Positions 1 through 40,266 of a stretch of 64,000 nt of DNA are shown piece after piece; the first letter of the stretch is position 1; every line of letters starts with the position of its first letter. The stretch spans positions 1-64,000 of the forward strand of contig NIVC01003940.1 in NCBI GenBank assembly GCA_002269645.1, read 5' to 3'. The notes below the pieces were generated by a model. The model made no database searches. It saw only the letters and a program-made list of their open reading frames with translations, and was not told the DNA's origin. Made by a program: the position numbers and the translations under genes. The stretch is from Macrostomum lignano. Taxonomy: Eukaryota.

Positions 1-368
1 TCGTGTTCTTCCTCCTGCGGCTTCGTCTCCTTTTCTTCATTAGACTGCTGTTCCGTCTCATCTTCTTCATCTTCTACCTTTCGTTCTACATGTTGGACCA
101 AGTCCTCCATAAACTGCTCCATCTCCCTTCTCAGCTCCTCTTCTCGCGTCGCCGTTCCTAATGCCTCGAAATCGATGTCGATTTGTAACTCTCTGTGGAC
201 TTCTCCCTTCTCCTCCTGCTGCCGGTCCAATTTCTGCCTTTCATACGTTTCTCCACATTCTGCCAACTGCACTGCCCTAATTCGCGGGGGCTCGTTCTCT
301 TCTCGACTAGTTCTGCGCTGGCCGTAGATTCTCTTCCTAGGGTACACGCGCAATGGTGCGTCGGCCAT
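1..368 (-). CDS. Polinton accessory ORF, Glu/Arg-rich predicted coiled coil; runs off the window start
   Basis: Manual translation from ATG at 368: MADAPLRVYPRKRIYGQRRTSREENEPP...EEELRREMEQFMEDLVQHVERKVEDEEDETEQQSNEEKE, no stop to position 1. Starts 2 nt after the stop of the 371-880 ORF. Confidence 0.6.
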   Translation of the reverse strand, partial: MADAPLRVYPRKRIYGQRRTSREENEPPRIRAVQLAECGETYERQKLDRQQEEKGEVHRELQIDIDFEALGTATREEELRREMEQFMEDLVQHVERKVEDEEDETEQQSNEEKETKPQEEEH

Positions 369-370
369 AG

Positions 371-880
371 TTATTCAGATTTGAGCTGCAAGAGGTTGAA
401 TGGGTTAAACAACGCCGCTATCCTCTGTACATAACTCTTCTGGTTCGGCCTGACAGTTAATCTATCCGGAGCATGACGCTCTCTGGCCTCAGGTGCCGGC
501 TTGAAGAGCTTGTCCAAACGGGAGGCAAACATCCGGCGCCACAGTTCAGGCGTGAATTCGATCGTGTAGCGCCAATTAAACTTTGGGTCCACGTTGAGCC
601 AATCGCGCAGCAAACGAATCCTTCCTTGCGAAGCCTCGACAGCCTTGAAATTGCCCAACACGACCCGCTTGTACACGTGAAGGCGGGCAGCAGCCTCCAG
701 GTCAGGGCGTGCAGACTCGAGCTTCTTCCACTCTGGTTCGGTCAAGTAGATTGCAGGGAAGCCGTCCTTCCACACTCCAGCCTCGTTGGTGCAGAGACGC
801 CGAATTTCAATCAAGTTGTGCTCAGTTTTAAATGTGGGCTTCCGCGCCACAAAGTTTTCGTATAGAGAGTTAGAAGACAT
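371..880 (-). CDS. Polinton ORF with a PC4/Sub1-like ssDNA-binding fold (169 aa)
   Basis: IEIRRLCTNEAGVWKDGFPAIYLTEPEWKKLESARPDLEAA resembles the PC4 pattern (DIR..Y...GEW.PG..GISL..EQW..L). ATG start, upstream TATA. Fold assignment is by eye. Confidence 0.6.
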   Translation of the reverse strand: MSSNSLYENFVARKPTFKTEHNLIEIRRLCTNEAGVWKDGFPAIYLTEPEWKKLESARPDLEAAARLHVYKRVVLGNFKAVEASQGRIRLLRDWLNVDPKFNWRYTIEFTPELWRRMFASRLDKLFKPAPEARERHAPDRLTVRPNQKSYVQRIAALFNPFNLLQLKSE

Positions 881-1118
881 GATTTAGCAGCAGCAGCAGA
901 GAGCTCTCTGGCAGCCGTGCAGCGCCTTATATACCCCCGGATGGAGGGTGGGGTGGGTGGTGATTTTGGGGTGATTTTTGATGATTTTGGTTGGTTTTTG
1001 GCGATTTGACCAATAACCAGCAAGCTGGGCAGATTTTTTAGTATATATACAGACCCCCAGAACAGGGATAGAGAGATAATGCTTCTCTCTCCGCTCTCTC
1101 ACACTCTCTGTTTGCAAA
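881..1118. promoter_or_regulatory. Divergent promoter between the PC4-like ORF and pPolB
   Basis: TATATAA on the minus strand at 933-927 and TATATATA on the plus strand at 1042-1049, each 45-70 nt upstream of an ATG (880 and 1119). Confidence 0.55.
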
Positions 1119-4100
1119 ATGTCAAAGCGCAGCGCAGCACCAACTGCTTTCCTGGCTGATAAGAGGCAGCGTCTTTATGGTAAGTTTTTAATTAATTTCT
1201 GGCCAGTTGTTTATCAGTCTAGACTAGAGTTGCTAGGGTGGGGTGCTGCGGCAGGAGGTGAGCTGCTGCGACAGCTGCAGGGGTTTAGCGCTGTCTAGAC
1301 AAGTTTCAGCACGGTGAGCTGCGCGTGTAAACAAAGACTGGGGCTGCAGATAGGGTGCGTGTACGTAGCTGCCCAGACAAGCTGCAGCTGAGGTGCTGAT
1401 AAGAAATTGCTGCAAAAACAGATAATCGTTGGGTGCGGTGACAGAGAGTTTCTGGGGAGACTAGACATGATTTAGCAGCAACAGCTGCAGGATCCATGGG
1501 AATTGGAGGGGTGCAGCAGAGTAAACAACAAAGACTGGCGCTGCTGCGCTGGCTACACGGGTCTAGACTAGAGTCACTAGGCAGGGGGGTACGTTGCTGA
1601 TAAGAAATTGGCAGAGGCTGTAACAGATAATCGTTGGGGTAAAATTGCAGACAAGTTTCAGCAGCGCGGTGGCAGAGAGTTGCTGGGTCTGATAATCGGT
1701 GTGCGGGGACAGCGTGATCTCTGATAAGAAATTGGTGCAGATAGGGCGCTGCCCAGACAGGCTGCAGCTGGGGTACAGATAAGAAATTGGCAGGGGCTGT
1801 AACAGAGAGTTGCTGGGGCGGGCTAGACACGTTTCAGCAGCAACAGCTGCAGGGTCTGTGGGCAGCAGAGTAAACAAAGACTCTTGCAGAATAGAGTTGG
1901 TGAATTGCTGCTTGCTGCGACATAGGGCTGATAGGAACTTGCTAGGGCGGGGGAACACGCTGGGGCCGGGAAAATGACAGATTCTTCTGGTTTGTTATCT
2001 CCTTGTGTTTTTTCAGACGCGTTTGTCCCGCCTGTACAGCCAGAATCTGTTACCGGACCGGGTGAGTTATCTAGCCCCCATTCCCAGACAGACCCGGGCT
2101 GACTCACACTCCCCTTCATTCCCTGCAGGTTTTACGGCCCGGCTAGATAATCAGCGCGAGCTGCCCAAGTTTAGGGCAAAGGGTGTTGAGTATGTGGTGC
2201 GTATTAGTAACACCGAAGATTTACGCTAGACATTCGCTAGTATGCTCGAAGTTTTCAAGCAGGATTTGGCGGGGAAGACTTTATGGCCGCGAAATTCGAG
2301 AGCGACAACATGCTCAAAGCCGCCCATACTCCCCCAGTGCGTGCAGCCCGCATGACAGCCGAATTATTATTCAAGCACATTGACAAGATTGTGCAGTCGG
2401 AGGCAACTGTCTTGACGGGCAACTTTTCTATCCGACTGCTAAAGGCCTGGGTGCCTCGAGGTGGCTGCTCCCTCGAGAACAAGCATCTGGAGGACCGCCT
2501 GCGAGCGCTTGTTGTCGCCTGCGCCTACCTGCAATTTGTGGCCAAGACAATCACCGAGCAACTGTGGCGCACGATCAAGGCTAATTCACCCAAGCAGACT
2601 AAGCTGGTGGCTCAGCTGCAAATCAAAGCCGGTCTCTACACGGTAAGTTGGGCACTGATTTTCCTGATAAGAATTACTAAAAGAACCATTTTTCTGCTAT
2701 TTTCATGGATTACTAAAATAATTTTTACATAGTATCATGGAATACTAAAAGAAACCATTTTCTGATAGGAATTTTTACATAGTATCAGGGAATACTAAAA
2801 TAAATATTTTACCCCCCACACAGACCGTCTCGCAGGCCGGTCCTTTCGGGTGGATGTACTACCCGAGGCGATCCGTGCCCTGAACCGGCTGCATCCTGGC
2901 CACAACTTTGGTGTACGAGTGTACCGGGCAGAGGAGGCCAACAGGTGCATCTTCAACCTGCCTGGCACCGAGATTCTGCACCTCCACCTGATTGAGCAGC
3001 ACTTCAATGTGGTTACCAAGCTGCCAGCGTTTTTCGGCAGCCACCACTACTGCTCCAAGTGCGAGATAGCCTATGACTGCACCAACGCTGAGCACAAGTG
3101 TGCTGACGCCTGGAGTACATGCAAGACGCCGGGCTCCAACTGCAAGGTCAACCGCGCATATGTGAGATGCCATGATTGCGGGCTAAATTGTTATAATGCT
3201 CAGTGTCTAGAGAATCACAAGCGCAAGAATAAGGCGGGTAGATCTCGCTGTGATTCAGTCCACGTTTGCGGCACGTGTGGCTATCTAGAAGAACTGAAAG
3301 TAGGCCAGGCCCGAGCATCAGTGCGGTCACTCCAAGTATCCAGTCTGCAAGCAGTACGACGAAACAGCCACCTACGAGTGCTTTGTCACCCCGCCCAAAG
3401 CCAAAGAGTCTAGCGCCCCGTACGTTTACTACGATTTCGAGACGTACGTTGACTCTGGCAAGCAGCACCGGGTACACTTGGTTACGGCAGCTACCTCCTG
3501 CGAGGCGTGTCCCAAACTCTTCCCCAGGCCCCGCTGCAGCGCGTGCGGGGGTTGCACCGCTCAGCCAATTGCATTGCGGGACGCGATTTGGCGCGCGATT
3601 TTACGAGCTGTGTCTCCCACAGTGACTGTGCTTGCGGGATGCGAGAGTTTTTATCAGTCGGGCCTCACTCTATCGATGCATTTTACTGCTGGCTGACTAG
3701 CGTGTTCAAGCAGGGGGCAATTGCTATTGCGCACAATGGCTCTGCGTATGACGCATTCCTCCTGCTCGGAGCCCTACTCAATGGACTGGCCAAGAAAAAG
3801 CCCCAGGTAATCTTCTAGAACAGTCGCCTGATGTACATGAAGAGTGACAAGGTCACGTTCAAGGACAGCCTCAACTTTATCCCTATTGGTCTGGCGCAAT
3901 TCCCAAAGGCACTTGGTTTGGGCACCCAACTGACCAAAGGAGATTTCCCGCACGTGTTTAATCAGCCGCAAAACTGGGGCTACGTAGGACCCTACTGCTC
4001 GATTGATATGTACGGAGGGAAAAAGAATAAGCAACACGACTCCATCGCTGACTGGCTGGCCCAGCAGGAAGGCCGAGTGTTTAATTTCAACAAGGAGTAC

Positions 4101-6188
4101 CTGGACTATTGCCTGCAGGACACGCTAATATTGCGGGAAGGCTGTCTAAAGTACGGCCGCCTGATTAAGGACATTTGCGGACTGGACGCATTTGTCCAAT
4201 CCGACACCATTGCGGGCTTGGCCATGGCAGTATTCACCATTAAGTTTATGGTGCCCAACACTCTTGGGGTGATTTCTCGCCGGTCAGATGTGCAGTCGCA
4301 CAAGGCGCGGTGCTGGCTTGCACATTTGAATGCAACCGAGTTTGGCGGCCGGTTGCGGACAGCCGACTCTGGCGGCGAGGCTTTCGCCATAGGCCGAAAG
4401 GTGTATGGCTTCGACCCAGAGACTAGGACGGTGCTCCAGTTTCATGGCTGCTTCCACCATGGCTGTCCCAAGTGCTTCCCCAACGGCGACGTGCTGCACC
4501 CGCTCAAGAACCAGCCAATGCGGGCAATTTATGAGGAGACTGAGCGCTTCACCCGGCTGCTCTCTACAGCCTACAATGTACGTGTTCTGTGGGAGCACGA
4601 CTATCAGGGCGGGGGAGCGCCAGTCCAGCAGCCTATTCGTCTGGAGGAAGCCCTGTTTGGCGGCCGCACCGAGGCCTTTGTTCCGCACGCCGAGGCCACT
4701 GACACTGTGGAGCTGCGCTATAGGGATGTGGTAAGTTTTTTCAAAATTTCTCACACACACGCACACACACAGTTGACTTGCGTTTGAGTTTAGCCTACTC
4801 GACTAAGGTGTCGCTCTACCCGACTGTCAACAAGTTTGACAAGTACCCTGTCGGGCACCCGGTTCACCACCCCGAGCCTCATCTACTGGATGAGCAGCAG
4901 CTGGCTCGGTATTTTGGCATCGCCGAGGTGTCGATTCTGCCGCCAACCAATCTTCACATCCCGCTACTGCCCGCCAAGATTAGTAAGAAGCTTGTTTTTG
5001 GCCTCTGCCGCGTCTGCATGGAGACACAGTGCAGCAGCGAGTGTACACACACTGACGCTGAGAGAATGCTACGCGGCACGTGGTCGACCCCAGAGCTCCA
5101 CAAAGCCCTGCAGTTGGGTTACAAGCTGCAGTTAGTTCATGCCCTGGCGTATTGGACCGAGACTCGGTCCGGGCTGTTTGCAGATTATGTAAACACCTTT
5201 TTGAAGCTCAACGCCGAGTCTAGCGGTTCGCCGGGGATGACTGAGGGCGCCAAGGCTGCCTACATGGCCAGCTTTTTCGAGCGCGAAGGTGTCCGGCTTG
5301 ACAAGGTGGAAGAGAACCCTGGTCTGCGCTTTGTGGCCAAGATTTTTTTAAACTCGTAAGTTGGGGAGACCGTGTTTTTCTACTTACAGTAGCCAGATAT
5401 ACTAACTGCTAAAATTTATTTTTCCCTGCAGGCTCTGGGCAAATTCTGCCAGCGCGACGACTTGACCTCCACAGAGATTGTGGACAGCTACGAGGCGTGG
5501 CTCCAGCGTCTGACAGACCCCTCCATCAAGTTCAAGTCGTGCGAGCCTGTTGGGGAGAGCTTCATGATGCTCGAGTATAAGCCCCGATTTGGCGGTGCCA
5601 GCGAGCGAGCATTTAAGTACGCCAATGTACCAATTGGCGTTTTCACCACCTCCCATGCCCCGCTGCGACTCTACGAGGCTCTGGAGGGGCTAGGACCAGA
5701 GTCATTTACGCCGATACCGATTCGTAAGTAATTTTTTCACTGTCTCTGTCTCTCTTTCTCCCCCAACACTTTTTTATCCTCCTCCTCCTCCCAGGGTCGT
5801 ATACCGGTGCTCTCCGGGCGAGTACGAGCCTCCGGGCGGTTCGAGTTTGGGGCAGTGGACTGACGAGGTACCTGCCGGCTGCCGTATGGTACAGTTCACC
5901 ACTGGGGGCCCCAAGCTCTACCGCTATGTGGTGGAGAAGCCCGACGGGTCGGTGTACTCGGTACTCAAGTGCAAGGGCATCCGAGTCACACCCGAGATTT
6001 CCGAGCGCGAGGACGAGCTGCAGGAAATTCTGCGCCACGGCTGCTCTGTACGCCTGCCCCAGGTCCAGTTCAGGCGCGATATGGCTAGCTGTACAATCAG
6101 GACCCTGGAGATGGACAAGACTTTCCAGCGAGTAATGACTAAGAGAGTGTATGGGGCCGCCAGCCGTCCGTATGGCTTTCGGGAGTGA
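1119..6188 (+). pseudogene. Protein-primed family B DNA polymerase (Maverick pPolB with Vsr-like insertion), 7 exons: 1119-1179, 2017-2061, 2129-2642, 2824(or 2836)-4730, 4808-5355, 5432-5723, 5795-6188; disrupted
   Basis: Motifs: Cys-rich YCSKC..HKC, ExoI YYDFET, ExoII AIAHNGSAYD, KGDFPH, FHGCFHHGCPKC, GGRTE, motif A YRDV|VSLYP, motif B KIFLNS|LWGKF, motif C YADTDS|VVY, LGQWTDE, GGPKLY, KCKG. GT(A/G)AGT donors and pyrimidine-rich AG acceptors restore the motifs. In-frame TAG at 2227-2229 and 3816-3818 plus several 1-nt frameshifts. Confidence 0.9.
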
Positions 6189-7430
6189 GTGATAACGATC
6201 TGTCTTAGGGGAGCGGTTTTCGTGAGTGATAAGGATCGGTCTTTGTACGTCTCCCAGCCTGGGATTCCCCTATGTGCACACTTGGGATCCCTTCAAGTGT
6301 TAAAACTCCCATTTGACACCTCCAACCCCCTGTACATTGAGCGGGATTCCTTCAAGTGTTAAAACTCCCATTTGACACCTATTCCCCCGGGGCGGTTTGT
6401 AGCCCGTTGGTCCACCTCTTGGAGTAGAACTCCTGCAAAACGGACATAAACTGCTGCGCCGATTAGCGTCCCGATAGCGCAATCGAAATACGTTTCCGCT
6501 CCCGAGCCCTCTCACGGGTTCAATCGGGCTGAAAGATTTTGACGCGTTCAAAAGCGTCGTGATAATAATATATTGTGGGTTAGGGCGGCTAAAACCTCCC
6601 TTTTGTTTTTTGTTTAATGCACCTGTGGGCTAGACAATTGCAGCAATATTTACACCTGCAGCACCTACGTTTGTATAGCTTTATTAATCTGATATGTTTC
6701 AAAAGTGAATATTCTTTATACATATGAGTCTGTATTATACAACTATATATTTACGCCTGCTGATATTTGCACTCGCGCATGCATACCATTATTAATCCGA
6801 TATGTATCGAAAGTACACTTTGTAAACCTGCTTTATACATTAAACTGCTATGTATCGAAAGTAGACTTTGTAAACCTGCTTTATACATTAATCTGATATG
6901 TTCTTTACGCTTTATACACACATGTATTGAAAGTAAGTCTGCATTATACTTGTATCTACCTGTGTTTTATTAGCGCCTACTACACTAATATTGATTTTGT
7001 CTGCTTTACCGTCTGTCAATATATCGATAATATGCACCTACATTGTGTGTTTTTTTGCTGCTCATATACCTATTATGCGCCATTATTCACGCCTACCAAT
7101 ATGTTTTATCTACTTTTTTATGTAAATATACTCAATTTCGCCTACTATAAGTAGTTTTCACTAGCCTAATATCATTGACTACATATCGGTGTACACATAC
7201 ATATCGGGAGAGTGTACTGGGGAGAGTGTACTGGGAAGAGTGTACTGGGGAGAGTGTACACTCGGGGTGCCTGCGGCATACATATCGGGGTACATATCGG
7301 GAGAGTGCGCATACATGTCGGGAGGGTCGCCTGCGGCTGGACGGCGCTTGGCGCCACGCGCCTGCGGCGCGCGCGCGCCGAGCGCCGATATCGATACGCG
7401 TATCGATCACCTAGTGATCGGGGCGCCAGC
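6184..7430. repeat. Subterminal direct repeats and palindromes downstream of pPolB (probable Polinton TIR region)
   Basis: Duplicated GTGAGTGATAA.GATC.GTCTT (6184, 6222), TTCAAGTGTTAAAACTCCCATTTGACACCT x2 (6291, 6351), GTATCGAAAGTA.ACTTTGTAAACCTGCTTTATACATTAA x2, GAGAGTGTACTGGG x4 (7209-7262), and the palindrome ATCGATACGCGTATCGAT (7389-7406). Confidence 0.6.
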
Positions 7431-8127
7431 CAATGAGAGGCGAGGAGGGTTGACACCCACCTCACCTCCAAAATCAACGGAAACGGGGTTGTATAGTAGT
7501 GAGGTAGACCCAAAGTAGTGAGAGACCATATTTAAAATATTTCACTATGTACCCAAGGCCGGGCAATTTGAGGCCGCGGAGGCAATAGAGCTTGTGCATG
7601 TGGGAGAAATAATTTCTCTACACGGAGCCAGCGTGCCTGAGGCCGCCTGCTGGGGGAGAGATTTTCTCTCTCGAAGTCAGCGTGCTCGGGGGTCGCGTGC
7701 ATGGGAGAGAGAAGTAGCTATTATTATTATTCCATAATTATGAAATCAGTGAGGTTTGAATACCAGATTTCATGTTTTCTAGTAGAAGTTAATCTCAGTT
7801 TTTCAGGGCATTTTTTTCTCGAATACTGTGTTGGGATAGCTATTTCAGCCATAAGAGCTTTGTACGTCAATCGATTTTAGTATATGTTGATCTAAGGGGG
7901 ATTTGGTTGTCCCAGAAGCCCCATCATGACAACTACTATCCCGTTTAGATCAGTAGTTAAAATTATGACGATGAGGTAGTTGGTTTTTGGTATTAGGGCA
8001 TGATGTTTAAATAGATTTTAGTACTCGTAGATAATGATTTTTTGTTGCACCAGAAAAGGGGTAGTGGTTTTTTTCCCGAAACTTTGCGGAGGGAATTTGC
8101 ACCAGAACTCCCCTCATGACAACTTAG

Positions 8128-17387: not shown

Positions 17388-20300
17388 TCATTTTGTACAG
17401 AAAGAACTGTCCACAAGAGATATTTCCACCTTCCCATCAGGTTCAGTGTTGCCTCCATCCGTTCCTGAGACTTGCTCAGCTGAAGCATCCGCGTAACTGG
17501 AGCCGCCGCCGCCTGGACTGCCTTTCGCCCCTCCGGAGCCGCCGCAGTAGCCGCCACCGCCACCACCTCCGGCTTCATTTGCTCCAGATCCAGCAGTTCG
17601 GCCTCCTCCGCCTCCACCGCCGTAGCCACCGGAACCGCCACCGGCACCGTCGCCTCCAGCCCAGGTGGTGCCTCCAAAGCCACTACTATCTCCAGCAGGT
17701 GAAGCCGCAGGCGACTGCCATCCAGCACCAGCAGCGCCACAGTTAGTACCCGACGGGTTGCTACCGGCGTTCTGATTGGCCGATCCGGGGCAAGAGCCAT
17801 GCGAATGAATTCCAGCTTTGCCTGCAGTTGTCTCAGTGCCTCCGCCTCCTCCCCCGGCCGCCAACAGCAGGGTGCTGCTGCTCGTGTAGATGAAAGTTCC
17901 GCCTCCTCCACCGCCGCCATCGCCACTGCTTCCGCGTTTTCCAACAACAATGGTCAGCGTCTGAGAACTAGTCAAGGTAAAGTGAGCAATTTTTTCTGCT
18001 CCGTTGCCACCAGCGGCTGCTGTGCTTCCATCAAAAGCTGTACCGCCTTTGGCACCACGCGCTACAAATCGATAGCAGCCACCGTCCACAGGTGGCGTGT
18101 AGGTCACCGACGTTCCTAATTGGTATGACGCTGATGCTGGCGCTGAAAACGTTAGAGAAAATCAGATTTTAACTTATAATGTTATCATTTAATAAATACC
18201 AACTTGAATTGTTAAACAGGCAGGTGCTTGTTTAAATTAGGTCAGTTTCGTTTCTGTGTAAAAATATCAATTCCTAGAGCACAGAGAATAAGAATGGTTA
18301 CAGAGAATACCGAAGTATTCTCACTAACTAGAATTACTACGCTTGGTTACTTTTCCGGATTTTTTGCTTACACCAATCTCAGAATGCGAATACATCTGGT
18401 GGGTTGGCCCCCTAATAAAACAACAAGAGAAACTGCAGCTGCAGCAGCAATAACATCAGCAGCCACTGCCACAGAACTGCACTCCGCCAAAGCCAATAAA
18501 GACAGTCCAGCTGATAAAAAGTCAATTAAGGACATAACTCCATTAAAAATCAGCGAAATTTTAGAAACCAATTTTCTGTGGCCAAAATACTTGCTTTAAG
18601 ATTATCCACTTTATTGTCTTTTAGCCAGAGAGAATTATGCCTTTAACAGCCTGGCTTGGACTGTAGTCTGCGGGAGAGTGGCAGCTTAGAATTCCGAGCT
18701 GTCCGCTTGATTGGCTTTATTGTCTATGGCCGACTGCAGCTCTGTGACAGTGGTTTGATTGGCTTTATTGTCTATGGCCGACTGCAGCTGTGTGACAGTG
18801 GTTTTGATTGGCTTTATTGTCTATGGCCGACTGCAGCTCTGTGACAGTGGTTTTGATTGGCTTTATTGTCTATGGCCGACTGCAGCTCTGTGACAGTGGT
18901 TTTGATTGGCTTTATTGTCTATTGCCGAGTGCAGGTCTGTGACAGTGGCTTTGATTGGCTTTATTGTCTATGGCCCAGTGAAGTTCTGTGGCGATCTCCT
19001 TCTGCTGTTGCGAATGGGGATTCCTATCTTGATTTGCTTAATTATGAACTTTACTGACAGAAGCAATTTACAGTTCAGTATGGCTTTTACCACTGAGCAA
19101 TACGAGTATTAAGAAGCTTTTGTATCTAAATCCGAATGAAACTGACTACCTAAACACGAGAGAGCATAGGAACTCGTGAAATTTAGTCTTGAAAATTTGA
19201 TTAGAATCTGATGATAGCAAAAACTGCTTTTAAAAAGAGGCTTCGGGGCGAATGCATTCACAACTGAAGAAGTCGCAACAACTCGAGCTTCTTAGAATTG
19301 AGCTGATAAGAAAAATACATATTTGTCGGATTGCTAGTGCATTCAGTATGCTCTAAAAAAACGGCATTGTTAGTGCCGGATTTGTCTGTGTCGAAGCAAT
19401 ATTGAGCGCCATGCGTTCTCTCGAGCATGCTCAACGCGATACTACAAATATACATTACTTACGGGCCTCAAGCTTATTTCTAAGAAATTCGAGTTTAGGT
19501 TCCTACTACGAACGTACAGCAATCCAATTTGCAAATGGTGCAAAAGGAAGATTCTATTTTTCTTAGTATTTCACTTAAATGAAAAAAATGTATACATGTA
19601 TACCTACCAGTCAGTGCCAGTGGACCCGGAGTCGTATACGTTGTCGTTAGAGTCGTAGTAGTAGCAGTGGTAGTCGGAGTCGTAGTGGTCGTAGTCGTAG
19701 TGGTCGTTGGAGCCTCTGTGCTCGCAGTCGTAGTGGTAGTTGGAACCTCTGTGGTCGTAGTCGTAGTGGTCGTTGGAGCCTCTGTGGTCACAATTGTAGT
19801 GGTCGTTGGAGCCTCTGTGGTCACAGTCGTAGTTGCCGTTGGAGCCTCTGTGGTCGTAGTCATAGTGGTCGTTGGAGCCTCTGTGGTCGTAGTTGTAGTG
19901 GTCGTTGGAGCCTCTGTGGTCGTAGTCGTAGTGGTCGTTGGAGCCTCTGTGGTCGCAGTCGTAGTGGTCGTTAGAGCCTCTGTGGTCGCAGTCGTAGTGG
20001 TCGTTGGAGCCTCTGTGGTCGCAGTCGTAGTGGTCGTTGGAGCCTCTGTGATCGTAGTCGTGGCTGTCGTTGGAGTCTCGGTGGTCGTTATCGGAGCCGA
20101 AGTAATCAGAGTCGAAGTGGTCGGAGCCGTAGTTCTCATCGAAGTAGTCTCACAATCTGCTCTGGTTCGCAGCACCTGCGTGTTGCAGGCCGGTCCGCTA
20201 CTTTGCTGCCAGTAAAGCAGCAGGTCGCAGCTGTCTCCGAGAATGCATGACCGGTTGCTAGGCAAGTACTCATAGACTGAGCACAGGGTCGTGTTGCTCG

Positions 20301-26527: not shown

Positions 26528-29500
26528 TCATTTGCAGTAAGAGTTGGCGACGGCTGCAATGACGACCTTTCCAGCAGGACCGCTATTGTGCCCGTTCGAT
26601 CCCTCGGGGTTCCTGCCCGATGCGTCCACGAAGCTGCCGCCTCCGCCTCCTCCATCTCCGCTGCTGCTTCCAGTTCCGCCGCAACCACCGGAGTAGCCGC
26701 CGCCTCCGCCGCCGCCGCCTTCACTGTCACTACCGTCTGTGCCGCCGCCTCCGCCGCCTCCGCCGTAGCCACCATCGCCGTTGCTGTTTGCGCCGCCTCC
26801 CGCCCAGCTTCCGGTGGCGCTCTTTCCTCCATAGCCTCCATCGTCGCCTGTGGGTCCGGAACCTCCAGCAGAGCCCCAACCAGCGCCACTGCCGCCAGAC
26901 CTGTCAGTGCCCTTGCTGGGACCTCCCTGTCCGACAGTCGAGCCAGAGCAAGTGCTGCTAGTGCCATCGTTGCCGTCTTTTCCCGTGTCCGAGTTGGAGC
27001 CATCACCGCCTCCGCCGCCTCCTCCGGCAGCCATAAGCAGCTGATGCGAGTTACTGCTTCTGGTTATATAGACAAAGGTTCCGCCTCCACCGCCGCCGCC
27101 GCCATTAGAGTCGCTATCGCTTCCGGCATCGGTCCCAGACTTTCCCACGACAATCGTGAGCGTCTCGGTCAGATTGAAATAGGCCATTTTGTAAGCTCCT
27201 TTACCTCCAGTTGCACCTTTTGTTGACTGGCCACCGTTGGCGCCCCATGTTTCGATTTTGTAGCAGGTGTTCACTTCCGGTGGTGTGAAGAATTGCACTA
27301 ATCCCGTTTTGCCAGTTGTGCCACTCGCTGAAATGCGGTTGATAGAGTGTGCGTTCAGTGGTAATTCGATTGTAAAGACACAGAACTGCATGATGTTTTG
27401 AATGCAGCTATCAGTATTATCAGACATATATCGCAGCCAAGTTATGGCCAAGAAGTCAGAAGTAAGAGACCTGCCGTCGCCCAGATTCAAAGGGTGTAGT
27501 GCTTGTGTTGACATGCTGTGGCGTTTACGGGGATAGTCATACTATTGTTAATTCTGGCAAAATATTGTTCTACCGGATGAAATAGATTAACTTAATAAAA
27601 TATCTGTGTATGTAAATTTAAATGTGGCTTTTGTTAGAGTTTTATAAGTTTCTTGAGTGCTTGCAACCAAGAGTTTGTGGCGTCTGTGATTCCTGAAGTT
27701 TGATTGCAGATCGAATCCTACCTCGCAAAAGTGGAAGGCTTATACCGTATAGCTTCGCTTTTCAATATCTGAGGCAATTAATTTTTTTAAGAATAAAAAT
27801 ACGAATTTTTGACTCGCAGTCGCTGCTCTGCTGTTAACGCCGAGGTACTGTACACTCAGTCTACTTGTATAAAGCACTTGGATTCACTTTGGTATGAGTA
27901 TGCCAAGCCAGAAAACTTTGACACACGACAGAGTTCTCAAATTTTGTATACATTCAACCAGTTTATGCCTCTTCATTTAAGCATGAGTATGTCATTATGC
28001 TGTCTGTCGCCAAGAGTAGAATTTTAGGTGTAAAATTTGTACCCCTCTACAAAGTAATAACGGCATGCTATGAACTTGTGACGCTTAATGAAATGCGCGT
28101 AGTAGGCTGTTTCCACAAAGTATCAACTACGTAAATGGCAAAGTGTCTAACGATTGTAGAGGAATCTAAATAGATTCAGTAAGTAAATGACATGAAGTAA
28201 GGCTTTGAAAAGCTATTGATATATACCTCAGCAAGTGCAGACTAGCATGCAGTCAGGCTTTGACAAGCTATTTTGATATATACCTCAGCAAGCGCAGAAT
28301 AGCATGCAGCCAGGCTTTGACAAGCTATTGATGTTTACCTCAGCAATCGCCGTTCTTCACCTAAGTCGTAACCTAGATCTTCGAGGGAACAATCGAGGCA
28401 CTGTACGAGTTGAGCGACGAGTTGCAACGAAACAACAGCGACGCAGCACAGCACTCTCGGCTGCTCGATGAAATAGAAACCGTCGAGGAGGACTACCGCG
28501 TCAGCATGCGAGAGGTCCAGCGTTTCCGGCTCGCACCCGAGACCTCAGAAGGTCCGAGGCAGGTCCAGTCACAACAACAGCAGCAACAGCCACACTTGGA
28601 AATCGGTGGCTATGGTGAGTTTGGCGACGAGTTTTCTCCGAACGATGCCAGTAGACCCGAGGCAGAACAAGCTAGCTTAGCGGAGGAACTGCTGGCAGTC
28701 AAGGTGCGAGTTCTACGGAACACGAACTGTCAAAAGAACTTTGGAAGATGTTGCGTCGAGTTGAAATTCCTACCTTCTACGGAGAAAAACAACAGTACGA
28801 GGCGTGGAAGGCAGCGTTTATGGCTTGCATCGATAGGGCCCGAGCCACACCAGAGTTCAAACTGCGCAGTTGCGTCAGTATTTGCGTGGATCGGCGCTGA
28901 AGGTGATAGAGCACTTGGATCATTCGGCTGCTGCCGACCAGGCGGCTAAGGAGAGATTGAAGCGTGAGTACGGCGGCAAGCGACGAAAGTTGGCGCACTA
29001 CTTGGAGGAGCTAGATAGTTTTCCACCCGTGAAGCAGAATAGTGCCGAGGAGCTGAAGAAATTCGCAAACATCCTCGATGTGGCTGTAATTAATTTGGAA
29101 GAAGCTGGTAAGAACTCCGAACTTAGTGATGGACTGCTTCATGCTAGATTGCAAAAAAAGTTACCAGAGCCGATGGTCGCAGCATTTCGTCGATGGATCT
29201 TCGAGAAGGCAAAAGCAGAAGGCGTTAGGACCCTTCGAGAGTGGGTTTTGCGTGAGGCAGAGTTCCGAACTGAGGCAGCAGAAATTGTGTACGGGGTGGC
29301 CGCATCAAGTCAGGAGCAACCAAGTAAGGACAGCAAGCAGAAAGCTTTCCATGTAGCGCAGCTAAGCAAGAGCACAAGCAAGGGGAGCTACTCCTGTGTC
29401 GTCTGCAAGGAGGCACACGATCTATGGAAGTGTCCCGCGTTCGGGAAGCTGTCGGCTGAGAACAGATGGAAGGCTGCTCAGGAAGTCAAAGCCTGTTTCC

Positions 29501-32500
29501 GCTGTCTTGGCCATGGTCACATCGGTATAAACTGCCGGCGAGGTGGAAAGTGCGGCGTTGATGGTTGCAGAAAATCCCACCATCGTCTGCTGCATTCGAC
29601 AACAAGGTCGGAATCGAAAGAGAAGCCAGAAGGCAAAGCCGGCGCTGAGCAAGAAATGCAGTCGAAGCCGAAAGCTGCAACCGTGACAATGGTAGCTAGA
29701 GAAGCCAGTGCGGTTTCACTTCGAACGCTTCCGGTCATTCTTAAGGCGAGTAGGCGAGCTGTGAAGATCAATGCCTTACTTGATGACGCCAGCACAAAGA
29801 CCTATTTGAATACGGCGATAGCATCCAAGCTGCTGGAGGCCTGCACGGCAAACAGGAATCAATGCAGGTAAACGTGTTGAACGGACAGGTGGAAACCTTC
29901 ATAACAGCACCAGTGTCATGCACCTTGGAGAGTACTGACGGCCAAATAAGCAAGGAGATTACTGTGCTGACGGTAGATAGAGTGACCGGGAGCATGGAAG
30001 TAGTAGATTTGCAAAAATTGGCGTCGAAATGGTCGCACTTAGGAAACATTCCGTTTCCAAGAAGGCAAACATCAGCGGAGGTTGACTTGCTGATCGGAGC
30101 TGATCACACCGACTTGCATGCGTCGCATCTGGAAGTGTGTGGCAAGCCTGGAGATCCGCAAGCCCGTCTAACACCTTTAGGTTGGACCTGCATTGGCAAG
30201 GTTGATGGAGCTTCGGAACGCTCTTTATTTGCGAGCACATTCTTCAGCGGAGGCGAATTCGAGAACTTGGCCCCATTGTTGCGCCAATGCTGAGAAGTTG
30301 AAGAGCTTCAGCGGGTGGAGTCACCTTCATTCACGAATTCAGAGCAGCTTGCCCTGGAACGCACTCGATCATCGCTGAAGTTCATTGACGGGCAATACCA
30401 GGTTGGGTTTCCATGGGAACCGGATGCCAAGCTACAAGCCAACAACTTCGAGATGGCCATTAAGCGGCTTGGAAACACTGAGAAGCGGCTCCTCAAGGAT
30501 CTGGAAATAGCCAAAAAGTACCAGGACGTCATCAATCGCTGCGAGAAAATAGGCCACGTCAGAAGGGTGCTGCAGAATGAGCATCAGGCTATGAAAAGGT
30601 ACTACCTTCCGCATTTCCCAGTGGTTCGAATGGGCATGGCAACGCGTGCAGTTCATTTAAAAATGGCGTATGGCCTTGATACAAGCAGCTTCCTAAACTC
30701 GTTGTTTCGCATGATCAGTCGCCGAGGTCAAGTTCTGGAAATCTTCTCAGACAATGGAACTGATTTTGTTGGTGCAGATAGAGAACTAAAGGAGCTGTGC
30801 AAGTCGATGGACAAGAACGCATTGCAGTCACGCACATCTTACGTACCGATCAAGTGGCACTTTAATCCGCCTGCGGCTCCGCACTTCGGCGGTGTGCATG
30901 AGTCAATGATAAAGTCAACAAAGAGAGCGATAAATGCGATCTTGAGAACGGCAGAAGTCAGCGATGAACAGCTTGTAACAGCATTTGCCGGAGCAGAGCC
31001 GCTGCTGAACTCGCGACCTTTGACATACCAGTCGTCCCATCCTGGCGACGATCCGGTCCTGACGCCAGCGCACTTCCTGTACGGGCATGTCGGCGGACAG
31101 CTGGCACCAGAGACCGCGGCTGACGAGGTGTTCAACCCAACCAAGAGGTGGCGCTACGTGCAGCAGCTGGTGCAGTCCTTTTGGCGGCGATGGCTCCGAG
31201 AGTGGCTGCCAGCTAGTGAATAGCATGCAGTCAGGCTCTGACCTCAGCAAGCAAACATCTCGATCAAAATACCAAGTGCACTTCCGCTCTTTCATGTCAG
31301 ACCTGACAAAGTGATTTGCCTTTTGAGGGAACGAAAATTTAAAATAGCTATATATTACTTACAGGTAAATGTCACCGGAATAGAGGCGTTGATTTCACAA
31401 TAGGAACTGGCGACGGCTGCAATGACGACCTTTCCAGCAGGACCGCTGTTGTGCCCATTCGATCCCTCGGGGTTCCTGCCCGATGCGTCCACAAAGCTGC
31501 CGCCTCCGCCTCCTTCATCTCCGCTGCTGCTTCCAGTTCCGCCGCAACCACCGGAGTAGCCGCCGCCTCCGCCGCCGCCGCCTTCACTGTCACTACCGTC
31601 TGTGCCGCCGCCTCCGCCGCCTCCGCCGTAGCCACCATCGCCTTTGCTGTTTGCGCCGCCTCCCGCCCAGCTTCCGGTGGCGCTCTTTCCTCCATAGCCT
31701 CCATCGTCGCCTGTGGGTCCGGAACCTCCAGCAGAGCCCCAACCAGCGCCACTGCCGCCAGACCTGTCAGTGCCCTTGCTGGGACCTCCCTGTCCGACAA
31801 TCGAGCCAGAGCAAGTGCTGCTAGTGCCATCGCTGCCGTCTTTTCCCGTGTCCGAGCTGGAGCCATCACCGCCTCCGCCGCCTCCTCCGGCAGCCATAAG
31901 CAGCTGATGCGAGTTACTGCTTCTGGTTATATAGACAAAGGTTCCGCCTCCACCGCCGCCGCCGCCATTAGAGTCGCTATCGCTTCCGGCATCGGTCCCA
32001 GACTTTCCCACGACAATCGTGAGCGTCTCAATCAGATTGAAATAGGCCATTTTGTAAGCTCCTTTGCCTCCAGTTGCACCTTTTGTTGACTGGCCACCGT
32101 TGGCGCCCCATGTTTCGATTTTGTAGCAGGTGTTCACTTCCGGTGGTGTGAAGAATTGCACTAATCCCGTTTTGCCAGTTGTGCCACTCGCTGAAATGCG
32201 GTTGATAGAATGTGCGTTCAGTGGTAATTCGATTGTAAAGACACAGAACTGCATGATGTTTTGAATGCAGCTATCAGTATTATCAGACATATATCGCAGC
32301 CAAGTTATGGCCAAGAAGTCAAAACTAAGAGACCTGCCGTCGCCCAGATTCAAAGGGTGCTTGTGTTGACGCTACTTTGTAGCTATCGACCCGCGCGATA
32401 CCATCAATGACCACTGGAACCCTGGTGAGCTCCATTGCCACACCGACGGTTCTAAGCAGTCAGTCAACACCGGCTTTGATGTTGGAATCTTCCTGAACGG

Positions 32501-35171
32501 TAGGGTCATCGCACCCACGCCCAGTATACTTGGATCAACTCCAGTGTCTTCCAAAATGAAGTTCTTGCTATCAGTTCCTGCAGTGTAGTGCTTCTCGTCA
32601 CTTGTGTTGCTGGTAAGAACATCATTTTCTGCAACACCGCGGCATTGGTCTCGTTTTCTACTCTAAGTTCACTCATAGACCGTGTCGGACAACTTAGAAT
32701 GCTGTCGATATATATTTATAATTATTACCTTGATTCAGCACGAATAAGCAAACAAAAAAGTGCAAGTCCCTATTGAGCTGCGGAGAGGTGGGTCAGATAA
32801 GTAGTGTGCCCGATCAATCAAGCTGTGGAAGCTTTTGATTCAACCAGTCGGATACTCAACCTGCTGGTGAGTAAACTGTGGGAGTCTACAGCGACCGAGG
32901 CTGCCGTCGAGGCTGCGACAGAGTGCTGCTGTCGATCTAGTCGAAGTCATTTCTCACTATTCACCTGTGCTGTAGGTCCAAAAAGACTTTGTTGATTGGA
33001 TGCTAAAGGGGTAAAGGCCGAAATCCTTAGGAGAAGGGGGGGAGAAGCAGCGTCAGACAGGGGCGCCGCGAGAATTGAACGGAGTTTTAGTGGTTGGAGC
33101 AACGGGTGTCAACTGTCGACGCGAGCAACGCCTCTGATTGGCTGAGCTTAAGGTCCCAAAAGCCACCCGATCACCTGCTTTCTTTCTACCTCTTAGAGGG
33201 CAAGAATTTAAGGTTTTTTGGCTCCAATCGCTGTCACGAAATGATTTACAACCGTAAAATTATGTAAAAATTGCATTTCTAAAAAGAGTTCAAAGTGACA
33301 GTGAATTACATGTGGAACAATACTTCTATTAAATACAGTAAGAATTCCATAATCCCAGAGAAAAATTGGCAAAAATATGATTACGGCCTACTGCCAGTAG
33401 CGTATACTGTACCAGACCAATTTGCGAATGCAGAATTTAAAAATATGCTGCCTCATCGTGTTCTGTCGTGCACTTTGATGGGTGGATTCTTTTGGCTGCT
33501 ATGTATCCTGCTATTATATATAAAATATAAAATTTTTAAACCCTGCTTCTGCCTACCATTAAAGATGACCGACGACAGAGCCGTCGTTTTTGTAGTCGTA
33601 GTGGTCATATTTTGAGTCGTGGTGGGGGTAGTCCAATTTGAAGCTGTAGTAGTCGAAGCCCCTGTGGTCGTAGGCGGAGCCTCTGTTGTCGTAGTCGAAG
33701 CCCCTGTGGTCGTAGTCGGAGCCTCTGTTGTCGTAGTCGAAGCCCCTGTGGTCGTAGTCGGAGCCCCTGTGGTCGTAGTCGGAGCCCCTGTGGTCGTAGT
33801 CGGAGCCCCTGTGGTCGTAGTCGGAGCCTCTGTGGTCGTAGTCGGAGCCTCTGTGGTCGTAGTCGGAGCCCCTGTGGTCGTAGTCGGAGCCTCTGTGGTC
33901 GTAGTCGGAGCCCCTGTGGTCGCAGTCGGAGCCCCTGTGGTCGTAGTCGGAGCCCCTGTGGTCGTAGTCGGAGCCTCTGTGGTCGTAGTCGGAGCCCCTG
34001 TGGTCGTAGTCGGAGCCCCTGTGGTCGTAGTCGGAGCCCCTGTGGTCGTAGTCGGAGCCTCTGTTGTCGTAGTCGAAGCCTCTGTGGTCGTAGTCGGAGC
34101 CCCTGTGGTCGTAGTCGGAGCCTCTGTGGTCGTAGTCGGAGCCCCTGTGGTCGTAGTCGGAGCCCCTGTGGTCGTAGTCGGAGCCTCTGTTGTCGTAGTC
34201 GAAGCCTCTGTGGTCGTAGTCGGAGCCCCTGTGGTCGTAGTCGGAGCCCCTGTGGTCGTAGTCGGAGCCTCTGTGGTCGTAGTCGGAGCCCCTGTGGTCG
34301 TAGTCGGAGCCTCTGTGGTCGTAGTCGGAGCCTCTGTTGTCGTAGTCGAAGCCTCTGTGGTCGTAGTCGGAGCCCCTGTGGTCGTAGTCGGAGCCCCTGT
34401 GGTTGTAGTCGGAGCCTTTGTGGTCGTAGTCGGAGCCTCTGTTGTCGTAGTCGAAGCCCCTGTGGTCGTAGTCGGAGCCTCTGTTGTCGTAGTCGAAGCC
34501 TCTGTGGTCGTAGTCGGAGCCCCTGTGGTCGTAGTCGGAGCCTCTGTTGTCGTAGTCGAAGCCTCTGTGGTCGTAGTCGGAGCCCCTGTGGTCGTAGTCG
34601 GAGCCCCTGTGGTTGTAGTCGGAGCCTTTGTGGTCGTAGTCGGAGCCTCTGTTGTCGTAGTCGAAGCCCCTGTGGTCGTAGTCGGAGCCCCTGTGGTCGT
34701 AGTCGGAGCCTCTGTGGTCGTAGTCGGAGCCCCTGTGGTCGTAGTCGGAGCCCCTGTGGTCGTAGTCGGAGCCTCGGTGGTCGTATTCGAAGTCGCAATC
34801 GGAGTCATGGTGTTCGGAGCCGGAGTTGTCATCGAAGTAGACTCACAATCTGCTCTGGTTCGCAGCAGCTGCGTGTTGCAGACCGGCCCGCTACTGAGCT
34901 GCCAGTAAAGCAGCAGGTCGCAGCTTTCTCCGAAAATGCATGACCGGCTGCTGGGCAAGTACTCATAGACTGAGCACAGGGTCGTGTTGCTCGCGCATTC
35001 GACAGCGCACACTCGAGCATCGGCAACACCGAGCACTGTGCGCTGACCGCTCGCAGCAGTCACAGCATTGTAGCACAGGTCCGGCCTCTTGTCGAAGACA
35101 AAGGTAACCGTTGCTGTAAGTGAAATTAGAACTGCCAATATAATGGCAGTTCTGAAAAGACATGTAGACAT
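26528..35171 (-). CDS. Paralog B: signal + PAN + long mucin stalk + two tandem ALK-type glycine-rich domains; exons 35171-33557, 32190-31363, 27327-26528
   Basis: ATG at 35171; donor AAT G|gtaggc; identical acceptors catttcag|CG AGT GGC at 32190 and 27327. The middle exon is 828 bp (phase 1-1) and ends ACC T|gtaagt, so all three exons join in frame. The link to the third exon is inferred. Confidence 0.75.
28200..28345. repeat. ~57-bp minisatellite (about 2.5 copies), with a further partial copy at 31219-31255 on the far side of the BEL remnant
   Basis: CCTCAGCAAG.GCAGA.TAGCATGCAG.CAGGCTTTGACAAGCTATT units. Confidence 0.8.
28380..31223 (+). mobile_element. BEL/Pao LTR retrotransposon remnant (Gag, protease, RT start fused to integrase core), no LTRs, within intron 2 of paralog B
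   Basis: WKAAFMACID..TPEFKLAQLRQYLRG, zinc knuckles CVVCKEAH/CFRCLGHGH..C/CGVDGCRKSHHRLLH, protease LLDDASTKTYL, YYLPHFPVVR joined to ATRAVHL..FSDNGTDFVGA..PHFGGVHE..WLREWLP. Confidence 0.9.
32372..32590 (+). mobile_element. RNase H LINE fragment, same family as 11483-12536
   Basis: ELHCHTDGSKQSVNTGF.VGIFLNG and, after a frameshift, SQYTWINSSVFQNEVLAISSC, paralleling SQHTGLNCSVFQSEVLAISSC. Confidence 0.7.
33625..34790 (-). repeat. Coding 21-bp tandem repeat ((G/E)APTTTT, over 50 copies), the mucin stalk of paralog B
   Basis: GGAGC(C/T)(C/T)CTGTGGTCGTAGTC units on the plus strand. Confidence 0.95.
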
Positions 35172-35874
35172 TAATTAATTCTGGCTGATAAAACAAGCTG
35201 CAGATAAACACCGACTGTGTAAGCGGAGGTATTAGTGAGTGAGGCTAAGTTGATACAGCAACTTTAGCTATTTCTAGTCGTCATTCGTACGTGCACTTAA
35301 CCCACCTCATCGGCCTGGGCAAGGTCTTCAGCACGGAGAAACTACGGAGTAAATAAGTTTTGTTACCGAGGTAACTCAGTTTAAATGATGTACGTACAGA
35401 ATTTTTATAGCCTCAACTTGAGTTGCAATGCAGTCAATGCAGCCCATCTGTAGGTTAGAGCAGAAGTCAAAGAGGCATATCTCTATGCGCATTCTTGAGA
35501 ATCTGCTTCCCATGCCTAGTTAATTCCTTACGCTGCAGTTAAAAAAAGCATAGCTTAACTGCAGGGATGTAGGGAACAACTCCCGTACTAAGAAAAGTTT
35601 TCTAGCTGTTCTAGTGCCTGCTTCTCGGTGAGTGAAAGCTAACTAAGCTGCAACATGTTTTAAAGAGCTATTGTTCTTTACACCTCACTCCCTTAACTAT
35701 CGACAGTCATGTTAAGGCTTGGTTTGACTTTCTACTGATACCTCGGCCAGTCAGTCCCCACAAAAATACCACCTCCATTAGAATTATCCATTACAAAAAT
35801 TACAACTTTATTGCTTGCTCTATCGGTTTCAATCCTCATTTTTTAACCTCTTGGTTCACCAACCATCTCCTGAA

Positions 35875-37979: not shown

Positions 37980-40266
37980 TCAGCCATTAGGGGTCATGGA
38001 CAAATATTTATTCAAAAAGGAACTAGCTTTACTTTTATCCTTCCAAATAAAAAATTTGTCATTTGCCTTTTATACCGCAGTTGGTTGAAATCTGCTACAG
38101 ATTATTCACGGTCTGGAAACAACTCGACTGAAGAAAAAAACATACGAAAAATATTTTAACAAAGTAAAACAAAAGTAAGCAGATCATACAGATCGTACAT
38201 TTAGATGCAAAAGTACTCCAAAACGCAAAAAAGAACATTGTGATATGTGTTAGACAACTTTAAACTTTAAATAAACATAATAACTCAGTAAACTTACAAA
38301 CTACATTAAAATATACTGACTTGCATTATATTTTGACTAAGTTCGAGTGAACAGTTGCCTTCAAATAGATTCATTAAGGCAGACTTAGTCCAAATCGCAG
38401 TCGAAGATCAGGCATGCCACTGCTGAAAGCAGGCTTCCAAGCAGAGCCCCGGTTCCCCTGGACACTCAGGGCAGCAGTAGATCGTGCGCTTGCTGCTGTC
38501 AGCTCTGTAGCAGACACGACAGCGCTTTGTTGGTCTTGGCTGACTGTCCCGCGCCACAATCTTCGTTGGAAAGTGCGGACTGACTGGGCCACCTGGAGCG
38601 GCCTGGATGCCAGCGGCCGGGCGCTTCCTGCTCGTTCCGGTACGCTCCACCAGCTCCCGAATGCTGGCCTCAAGAAACTTGGCGAACGTCTTCTCTCCAC
38701 CGCACCGGCTGTACACAATCCAAGCGTTGCGAATCATTTGAAGAAAAAGATGCAAGCCGAGCTTCAAAAACCACTTTGTAGTTTTCCTCCCTGGCAGATG
38801 AGGCTGTAGATGACAGTCCATTCTGTCAACACCACCCATGCACCGATTGTAGGTGAGAACTGACCTGCTCTTCTGCACCACTGTTTCTGCTCCTCCACGA
38901 ACCACGCGTCTGGTTTGAACCCTCTCAGCCGCCTCTTTCGTGTCCAGCAAATATAGAGTCTTCAGGCCACTCTCCTTACGTTCAACGATCTTGACAGCCA
39001 GCACCCCGTCTTTGCGCATGAAGGCGACGTCGTTAGGTGGAACGTGCAGCTGTCTGAGCTCAATCGGCACACCTCGGTCGGCCCGGACGGTACAAGTCAG
39101 GTGCGTTCCTTGAGTCAGCAGGTACTCTGACAGCCGATAGGAACCGAACCATTAATCGACAAAGATGCGGTAGCCTTGGTGCAACAAGTTGTAGCAGAGC
39201 TCAACAACAATCTTCTCGCTGAAGGACAGATTGTCTCCCTGCAACTGTTCATCGAACCGGCGGTTCTCCTCTGGGGTCGAGTGAACGCGGAAGTTGTACA
39301 GGTAGCCTGATTTGGCCTCACATGCACAATATAGCTTTATTCCGTACTTAGCCCGCTTCGTTGGAATATATTGCTTAAAGCGCAGGCGACCTTTGTACAG
39401 CACCAAAGACTCATCCACGCTCACATCCTCCTCGGGCCTGTACACATTAATACAAGCCTCTTTCAAAGCCTGCAGCAACGGACGGATCTTAAAGAGAGGA
39501 TCGTTGACAATCGGATACTCAGCGCAATCGTAGAAACGGAGCAGACCAAGTAGCTGCTTGAAGCGGTCCCTAGAGAGAGCTTGAGGTGCTTGAAAGTACG
39601 GCGTACTGTAGTAACTGCCTGTGCTCCAGTACTCGTTCATTTTGGCCTTTTTATTGGAACCCATGTAAAGGCACATTCCTAACACTTTCTTTACTTCATT
39701 CGCACTGCAATCTCTCCATTGCGCAAAACTCCGAGGCAGGTCGTCGACATTGACAGAGTGGATCGCCGCCCAGGCTCTTCGATTAGTCCATTTTGCCAGT
39801 TCTTCGAAAAAGCTATTGGACAAAAAAAAACCGAGAAAAAAGGACGTTGCCTGCTCAACATCACCAGGTACGCAAATTCCTGGATTCAGTCCAGGTGTCC
39901 CTAGAAACTCGTGCACATTCGCTTGCACGTCATGCCCAGCAACTACAGAATGCCAAGACAGCTCTTCCGTCTCTTCGGCAGTGCTCTGGCCGTCCGACTC
40001 ACCATAATCGTCCTCTGACATGATGTCTTCTTCTTCATCGGACGTCATTAAGTCCGAATCGGAAAAACTTTAAAATTTTTCCATGAGTGCAGCCATAATC
40101 TTCAGCTGTAAAATTTTCTATGTTAGTTTGTGGAGACTTAGTTTTGGGCCTTATTCATAACTAGTCAATGTCTTTTTATCAGACTGGAATGACCACAGAC
40201 TTAGCAAACCATTCTGCTGAAAGGAATAGTCTATGGTAAGCGCTGCTTACCATCCGACCGGAACGG
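37842..40266 (-). mobile_element. piggyBac-superfamily element bounded by ~38-bp imperfect inverted repeats
   Basis: CCGTTCCGGTCGGCTATGGTAAGCAGAGCTTGCCATAGA (37842-37880) is the inverse of TCTATGGTAAGCGCTGCTTACCATCCGACCGGAACGG (40230-40266). The pair encloses the transposase; no TTAA next to either repeat. Confidence 0.65.
38408..40048 (-). pseudogene. piggyBac (PGBD4-like) DDD transposase with one in-frame stop
   Basis: SVDESLVLYKGR..YIPTKRAKYGIK, IFVD*WF (TAA at 39154-39152 where DNWF is expected), YNRCMGGVDRMD, C-terminal CRVC..CPEC..CLEACF. The two track ORFs are in the same frame. Confidence 0.9.

Follow-up and report, generated by a model that had tools for sequence, protein, structure and literature searches.

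Can a Polinton-type mobile element keep a functional DNA polymerase when spliceosomal introns lie inside the catalytic motifs of the gene? The question is raised by a 64,000-nt stretch of the flatworm Macrostomum lignano (contig NIVC01003940.1, hereafter the window; positions are counted from its first letter), in which an earlier note, made from the sequence alone, placed a Polinton gene that encodes a family B DNA polymerase of the protein-primed kind (pPolB), with six introns, at 1119..6188. Polinton core genes have been described as lacking introns, a trait also used in screens for intact elements, whereas the lineage considered here has spread with introns in three catalytic motifs.

The six segments are genuine spliceosomal introns that an entire lineage has inherited under purifying selection. 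The window copy itself is a broken pseudogene. The gene belongs to a decayed copy of a Polinton-derived element with a six-intron polymerase and no recognisable integrase or capsid, which likely replicates itself and is likely integrated by a borrowed integrase.

Intron structure and conservation

A DNA search of the worm's own genome with the family of the window copy (family A) gave at least 40 matches, with 40 of 116 candidates scored; 37 of these loci and the window form the alignment of 38 copies used here. The gene in the window is built as follows.

1119..1179, + strand: pPolB exon 1; 61 nt, the modal length, found in 31 of 38 copies
1180..2016, + strand: intron 1; phase 1; 488–1188 nt among copies
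2017..2061, + strand: pPolB exon 2; 45 nt, as in 36 of 38 copies
2062..2128, + strand: intron 2; phase 1; at the same position in family B (see below)
2129..2642, + strand: pPolB exon 3; predicted terminal-protein (TP) domain and first half of the vOTU protease
2643..2823, + strand: intron 3; phase 0; separates the catalytic Cys motif of vOTU from its His motif
2824..4730, + strand: pPolB exon 4; vOTU His, Cys-rich region, exonuclease (EXO) and start of motif A; broken here
4731..4807, + strand: intron 4; phase 0; inside motif A; in 38 of 38 copies
4808..5355, + strand: pPolB exon 5; open in the window copy; matched by PF03175
5356..5431, + strand: intron 5; phase 2; inside motif B
5432..5723, + strand: pPolB exon 6; two frame breaks in the window copy
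5724..5794, + strand: intron 6; phase 2; inside motif C; at the same position in family B
5795..6188, + strand: pPolB exon 7 with the stop codon

The six coordinates, GT(A/G)AGT donors and AG acceptors given in the earlier note all hold, except that the acceptor of intron 4 is not of the pyrimidine-AG type; it is AAG in the window copy and in the near-identical copy on contig C3314, and TAG in all other family A copies. The gene span contains seven GTRAGT hexamers on the + strand, six of which are the intron donors while the seventh overlaps the stop codon, and two on the − strand; the donors keep this consensus in nearly all copies. Removal of introns 4, 5 and 6 restores, as had been proposed, motifs A (YRDV/VSLYP), B (KIFLNS/LWGKF) and C (DTDS/VVY), respectively (the slash marks the intron), and these motifs are unbroken in related polymerases. 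Branch-point-like YTRAY sequences are present in intron 2 (34/34 copies), intron 4 (38/38) and intron 6 (28/38) and are rare in introns 1 (4/34), 3 (0/34) and 5 (3/38).

Introns 4–6, with GT-AG ends, stand at the homologous place in all 38 copies and introns 1–3 in 34, the four copies without introns 1–3 having a disrupted 5′ part. The modal exon lengths are 61, 45, 569, 1920, 548, 294 and 394 nt, giving 3831 nt in total (1276 codons plus stop), and the phases of introns 1–6 are 1, 1, 0, 0, 2 and 2. All seven exons are open and all six introns intact in 11 of the 38 copies. The pooled pairwise ratios of nonsynonymous to synonymous change (dN/dS) for exons 1–7 are 0.22, 0.36, 0.15, 0.10, 0.08, 0.04 and 0.07, calculated only from copies with a modal-length, stop-free exon (16–36 per exon), among which related copies are not independent. 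Since the introns are conserved and the exons are under purifying selection, the segments are not copy-specific insertions, and the claim that the introns are of host type in a functional lineage is borne out, intact copies sharing the intron positions.

Intron lengths fall into all three classes modulo 3 (119–320 nt for intron 3), and a stop-free in-frame read-through in family A exists only for intron 2, in 3 of 34 copies, and for none of introns 1, 3, 4, 5 and 6. The unspliced RNA cannot encode the enzyme, in agreement with the dependence on splicing claimed earlier. A further claim, that surveys based on open reading frames (ORFs) would miss the gene, was partly overstated: exon 4 (640 codons) and exon 5 (183 codons) are visible through PF03175, and automatic UniRef models already splice some of the introns.

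The six introns of one copy share only matches of 11–13 nt with each other, no genome-wide search with intron sequences having been made. In this they are unlike introners, which are related, repeated sequences.

Evidence for removal of the introns

Contigs, not reads, of four runs from three studies, taken by guess to be RNA (none of the runs listed is recorded as such), were compared with the window over 350–6600. GT..AG joints were found for intron 2 in all four runs (three studies), for intron 6 in all four, for intron 5 in three of four and for intron 3 in one of four. At intron 4, run X5 gave a 27-nt loose end before 4807 that resembles the end of exon 4, and one 1161-nt contig of this run skips introns 5 and 6 and holds the exon-4-like end at intron 4. 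A genome pattern search at intron 5 found 49 copies with the intron and 0 without it, and the joined form is therefore unlikely to be DNA.

Junctions of the kind called for in the earlier note were thus seen, in contigs, for introns 2, 3, 5 and 6, with a loose end at intron 4; intron 1 was not joined in the rows listed. The segments have the attributes of U2-type spliceosomal introns: GT-AG ends, consensus donors and removal from presumed RNA, which is indirect for intron 4 and was not seen for intron 1.

The polymerase and the origin of its introns

The product is identified as a protein-primed family B polymerase by PF03175, which matches exons 4 and 5, and by its fold: the structural model of a public family B gene model (mean pLDDT 78) has phi29 polymerase as its best match. 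The N-terminal alpha/beta domain, a candidate TP domain, is modelled with good confidence. The vOTU Cys is conserved in 73 and the His in 75 of 77 aligned homologs, which would fit the TP-vOTU-EXO-palm plan of pPolB (10.1101/2024.03.18.585575; cited, like every work given by identifier, from the passages available). Intron 3 splits the vOTU domain and introns 4–6 the palm motifs.

A PF03175 search of the genome gave at least 119 matches (91 of 974 candidates scored). The second family, B, has the ends ACTACG and is 55–74% identical to family A per exon; its introns 2–6 lie at the same codon positions and in the same phases in all eight regions with both flanking exons placed, and it has a matching acceptor before exon 2. 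In an exon 4 tree of 139 sequences, including 130 outside proteins that cover more than 290 of 360 residues (shorter ones were left out), families A and B form one clade with support 1.0 and a stem of 0.63. A pPolB phylogeny with introns mapped onto it, as had been suggested, thus groups the two families that share introns 2–6. Motifs A–C are continuous in P0139, the nearest outside relative, and in a decayed copy of the same class on C234, and P0012, P0013 and P0015 show no gap between the residues of adjoining exons; the introns were therefore likely gained on the long branch before the A/B split, to judge from these sequences. The lineage would thus exemplify how a virus-derived gene gained several introns, the intron-free state being known in relatives.

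The closest named proteins are M. lignano UniRef gene models, some of whose introns were already spliced automatically. A search for related loci found no relative in viral contigs, and in metagenomes one distant locus, other than the contig of P0139. P0096, a 185-aa protein from a 991-bp Logan contig, has 59% identity to exon 4 and could belong to a third family or come from a related host. The intron-free copy on C234 (L182–L183) lies near an AGTAGT end and capsid-like ORFs. Three family B loci, L140, L154 and L148 (C1945, C2286 and C583), have reverse-transcriptase retroelements inserted at exon 1, two of them in frame with the pPolB start, giving fusion ORFs of 875 and 1507 aa. Such long ORFs from family B exon 1 were considered as alternative products and rejected, being in-frame retrotransposon insertions (RVT_1, RNase H).

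The element and its ends

By homology to complete copies, 486..7500 of the window, on the + strand, belongs to a mini-Polinton element of family A. Apart from the polymerase gene, the following features were placed.

486..7500, + strand: remnant of the family A element; the left arm is swapped for foreign DNA left of 486
486..880, − strand: PC4-like gene (predicted single-stranded DNA binding), oriented away from the polymerase gene; lacks its 3′ end, cut off at 486
881..1118, no strand: intergenic spacer separating the two divergent genes; contains two TATA-like runs
6791..7500, no strand: right terminal inverted repeat; matches the left arm of C3314 and of C1638 in inverted orientation

Complete family A copies are 8.5–10.1 kb long, with terminal inverted repeats of about 0.7–1.4 kb and the ends 5′-ACTACT...AGTAGT-3′; four repeat pairs are 100% identical. 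A 6-bp target duplication flanks all 22 family A regions with both ends (20 distinct sites), all three family B elements and eight of eight further elements. The end pattern gave 229 matches in the genome versus 54 for the control, and eight of 10 longer end-bounded regions examined had both ends, these being the eight further elements with a 6-bp duplication.

The gene content comprises pPolB, the divergent PC4-like gene and optional cargo (a low-complexity ORF; dUTPase in family B), and in the shortest copies the repeats and the two genes leave some 200 bp over. The PC4-like gene gave a feature-based match to PC4 clusters (score 0.84, a lead only); the family B homolog passes the PF02229 cut-off (26 versus 25 bits) and has weak matches to PC4 structures (E 0.009–0.06). 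The spacer between the two genes is 89–92% conserved in three other copies and is likely a bidirectional promoter. Several ORFs resembling the family B PC4 gene (about 80% identical; L184–L187 on C1753, and C1176) have no pPolB or element ends nearby; another element or the host may have captured them.

A comparison of 26 complete elements with 75 ORFs from five canonical Polintons of this genome, candidates for integrase, capsid and ATPase among them, gave matches to PC4 and dUTPase only; no integrase (E ≤ 0.05), capsid, packaging ATPase or protease was detected. The element is therefore not a canonical Polinton, a point missed by the earlier note. A PF04665 packaging-ATPase search matched nothing in the genome and was not used; it is uninformative, as the resident Polintons have ATPase ORFs.

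Gene-less and palindromic derivatives with the same ends and 6-bp duplications occur on C301, C126, C1090 and C106; among them are a perfect palindrome of 9.6 kb that holds no genes and another palindrome made up of two partial genes. Since gene-less palindromes have been inserted, the ends alone suffice, and the integrase acts in trans. We infer that the fold-back palindromes are the products expected from strand-displacement copying of linear DNA. The long perfect palindromic mini derivatives with 6-bp duplications are L216 (C301) and L212–L213 (C1090). An ACTAC-ended autonomous element on C106 was rejected, the integrase there belonging to a nested canonical Polinton with its own ends and duplication, as was a giant element on C200, whose ends, 165 kb apart, reflect an inverted duplication that includes flanking DNA.

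Proposed source of the integrase and life cycle

The resident canonical Polintons are intron-free and AGTAGT-ended and also give 6-bp duplications. An integrase from one of them has at least 115 matches in the genome, most with an open frame (114 of 2318 candidates scored), and the many identically scoring copies suggest recent activity. They are abundant and 16–17 kb long, with a PC4-like gene beside the integrase (L118–L123 on C114 and C393; L158–L176). C2301 (L158–L160) carries a canonical Polinton in palindromic form that is truncated where the contig ends; C10 holds a derivative with an internal deletion, and in C1580 an insertion breaks the element. A two-part system, in which integrase and capsid elements lack a polymerase, found no support: the integrases examined on C906, C130, C291 and C1321 belong to ordinary Polintons with their own polymerase.

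In the life cycle that we propose, host RNA polymerase would transcribe the gene and the spliceosome remove the introns (joins for 2, 3, 5 and 6, indirect for 4, presumed for 1), likely constitutively. The predicted 1276-aa protein would use the (ACT)n ends for priming and replicate the linear element by strand displacement, a step suggested by knowledge of the family and by the fold-back derivatives, with the PC4-like protein acting beside the spliced polymerase in linear-DNA replication. A Polinton-type DDE integrase, of presumably foreign source, would then insert the linear DNA and leave the observed 6-bp duplication. On this scheme, the polymerase introns tie the element to the nucleus, and a Polinton-type replicon appears to be mobile without an integrase of its own. 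The more specific reading is that of a self-synthesizing satellite with two genes, the six-intron pPolB and the PC4-like gene: a linear replicon that has shed its integrase and virion genes, has come to equal a host gene in richness of introns, and spreads by exploiting the integrase of a Polinton class to which it is unrelated, although the ends differ. This reading has in our estimate an even chance of being right; if true, it inverts the usual satellite, which brings ends and borrows replication.

Several observations weigh against the proposed scheme. The ends are 5′-ACTAC in 26 of 26 minis versus 5′-AGTAGT in five of five canonical elements examined, differing by G/C at positions 2 and 5, and cross-recognition by the integrase is unproven because the mini ends differ from those of the proposed helpers. 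No integrase-bearing ACTAC-ended element was seen among the 10 longer regions, drawn from the 100 matches listed of the 229. As to splicing, the runs are guessed to be RNA and consist of contigs only, which come from other copies, given their many site differences from the window; the intron 1 joint is not among the joints listed in the four runs, and one contig has intron 2 removed and the 3′ part of intron 1 kept. Intron 4 of family B is in frame and stop-free in six of eight regions, so that there strict dependence on its removal rests on the disruption of motif A by the insert. Finally, the tree is rooted at its midpoint, and the intron-free state of P0139 rests on a metagenome gene call.

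The strongest alternative, which we nevertheless regard as unlikely, derives the minis by internal deletion from an unsampled or extinct autonomous, possibly spliced, ACTAC-ended Polinton family whose integrase they use or once used. The distinct ends common to families A and B would agree with this, as would a polymerase class different from that of the resident Polintons (no tblastn match at E ≤ 0.01 bar one of 22 aa), and the genome searches scored only part of the candidates (91 of 974; 114 of 2318). However, none of the 26 complete elements and 10 end-bounded regions has an integrase of its own, that on C106 being the nested canonical one, and the 100% identical repeats suggest recent insertion, so that the helper of such a family should still exist.

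It is considerably less probable that splicing is a regulated switch, as the earlier note had suggested, and that a retained intron, most likely intron 1, keeps the polymerase off in most tissues. The third intron of the P element is a precedent for tissue-restricting intron retention, and the partly spliced contig and the missing intron 1 joint point the same way; against this, partly spliced contigs are expected of ordinary pre-mRNA, intron 1 drifts between 488 and 1188 nt with no conserved core demonstrated, the donors are of near-perfect consensus, and nothing indicates regulation, which contigs cannot measure. Integration without a Polinton integrase, by host repair or by a nuclease-like insert of the element's own polymerase, agrees with the lack of an integrase and with a cluster member of a relative named very-short-patch-repair endonuclease, and is highly improbable given the exact 6-bp duplications and intact ends in 33 of 33 tallied elements, the signature reported for Mavericks (PMC8097293).

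Taken together, the data favour a self-replicating element integrated by a borrowed integrase, and an animal genome that holds both helper candidates and dependants makes the questions of extrachromosomal replication and of end reading by integrases testable.

The window copy and its surroundings

The reading frame of the pseudogene in the window is broken near 2270, 2847, 3312, 3551, 5436 and 5694. The copy has also lost 54 nt near 2497 and 9 nt near 2825, both in frame, and contains stop codons at 2227 and 3816. Exon 3 has a stop, a frame break and the 54-nt deletion, which runs through the vOTU Cys motif. The damage is thus greater than the 1-nt frameshifts near motifs B and C recorded earlier. 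Four of the breaks, those near 2270, 2847, 3312 and 5436, do not occur in the C3314 copy, which is 99.85% identical, and could be errors of assembly; three copies of this insertion share the breaks near 3551 and 5694 and the stop at 2227.

The right terminal repeat ends ...AGTAGT at 7500 (5′-ACTACT on the other strand). On the left, contigs of probable RNA have loose ends at 486, and 1–485 is foreign DNA that contains the start of a 287-aa acidic ORF; on C1638 this ORF adjoins a Gypsy-type pol ORF, and it is likely an accessory ORF of a long terminal repeat retrotransposon. Elsewhere in the window, 28837–31223, 38408–40069, 44364–45104 and 54416–55114 hold fragments that derive from a BEL/Pao-type retrotransposon (DUF1759, DUF5641), from a piggyBac-like transposase, from a Helitron helicase-like domain and from an aldehyde dehydrogenase exon. 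Repeated glycine-rich ORFs with weak matches to the ALK/LTK glycine-rich region, a PAN-like domain and a 21-bp tandem array occupy 17388–18161, 26528–27541, 31355–32371 and 33453–35174; the glycine-rich and PAN-like ORFs perhaps form one repetitive host gene.

Comparison with known systems

The element resembles animal Polintons/Mavericks (adintoviruses) in a pPolB with the predicted TP-vOTU-EXO-palm order, in long terminal inverted repeats and in the 6-bp duplication, and shares the PC4-like gene with the resident canonical Polintons. It differs in its six pPolB introns, in its size of 8.5–10.1 kb, in that no integrase, capsid or ATPase was found, and in the ends, which are 5′-ACTAC here versus 5′-AGTAG in canonical Polintons; 5′-AG termini are typical of Polintons. 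Adenovirus polymerase mRNA and the chlorovirus polB intron are cases of a viral family B polymerase needing the host spliceosome, but they have a short spliced leader or a single intron, compared with six introns here, three of them inside catalytic motifs.

Intact vertebrate Mavericks are described as intronless, with 6-bp duplications (PMC8097293), and Polinton core genes as intronless, with introns in cargo (10.1101/2022.07.12.499685); PMC12220804, in the passages available, mentions group I introns only. Capsid-less linear replicons, namely eukaryotic linear plasmids (pGKL-type) and transpovirons, are derived from polintons that lost their morphogenetic module (10.1101/2024.03.18.585575). 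The present element is likewise a capsid-less Polinton-derived replicon, but those plasmids are cytoplasmic or mitochondrial, whereas it is chromosomal, spliced and integrase-less. Capsid-less modules bearing pPolB have been reported paired with DDE integrases (10.64898/2026.10.13.758929), and 10 Caenorhabditis elegans loci hold pPolB and repeat remnants with no nearby integrase (10.1101/2024.01.15.575659). In the literature covered, which leaves out most subscription journals and Repbase and includes the available passages of PMC10748475, 10.64898/2026.07.28.741278, PMC8502044 and PMC6431247, neither this family nor a pPolB with several conserved introns was found described.

The only precedent found there for introns in Polinton-like elements is that of introner insertions, reported in Maverick-Polinton-like proviruses of dinoflagellates (10.1101/2025.03.18.643946). 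The likeness lies in spliceosomal-type introns inside Polinton-like elements. In the passages available, which contain no splicing data, the dinoflagellate proviruses bear capsids and their introns are mostly young introner insertions acquired after integration, whereas the M. lignano element has fixed, unrelated introns common to two families, exons under purifying selection and joins of RNA type.

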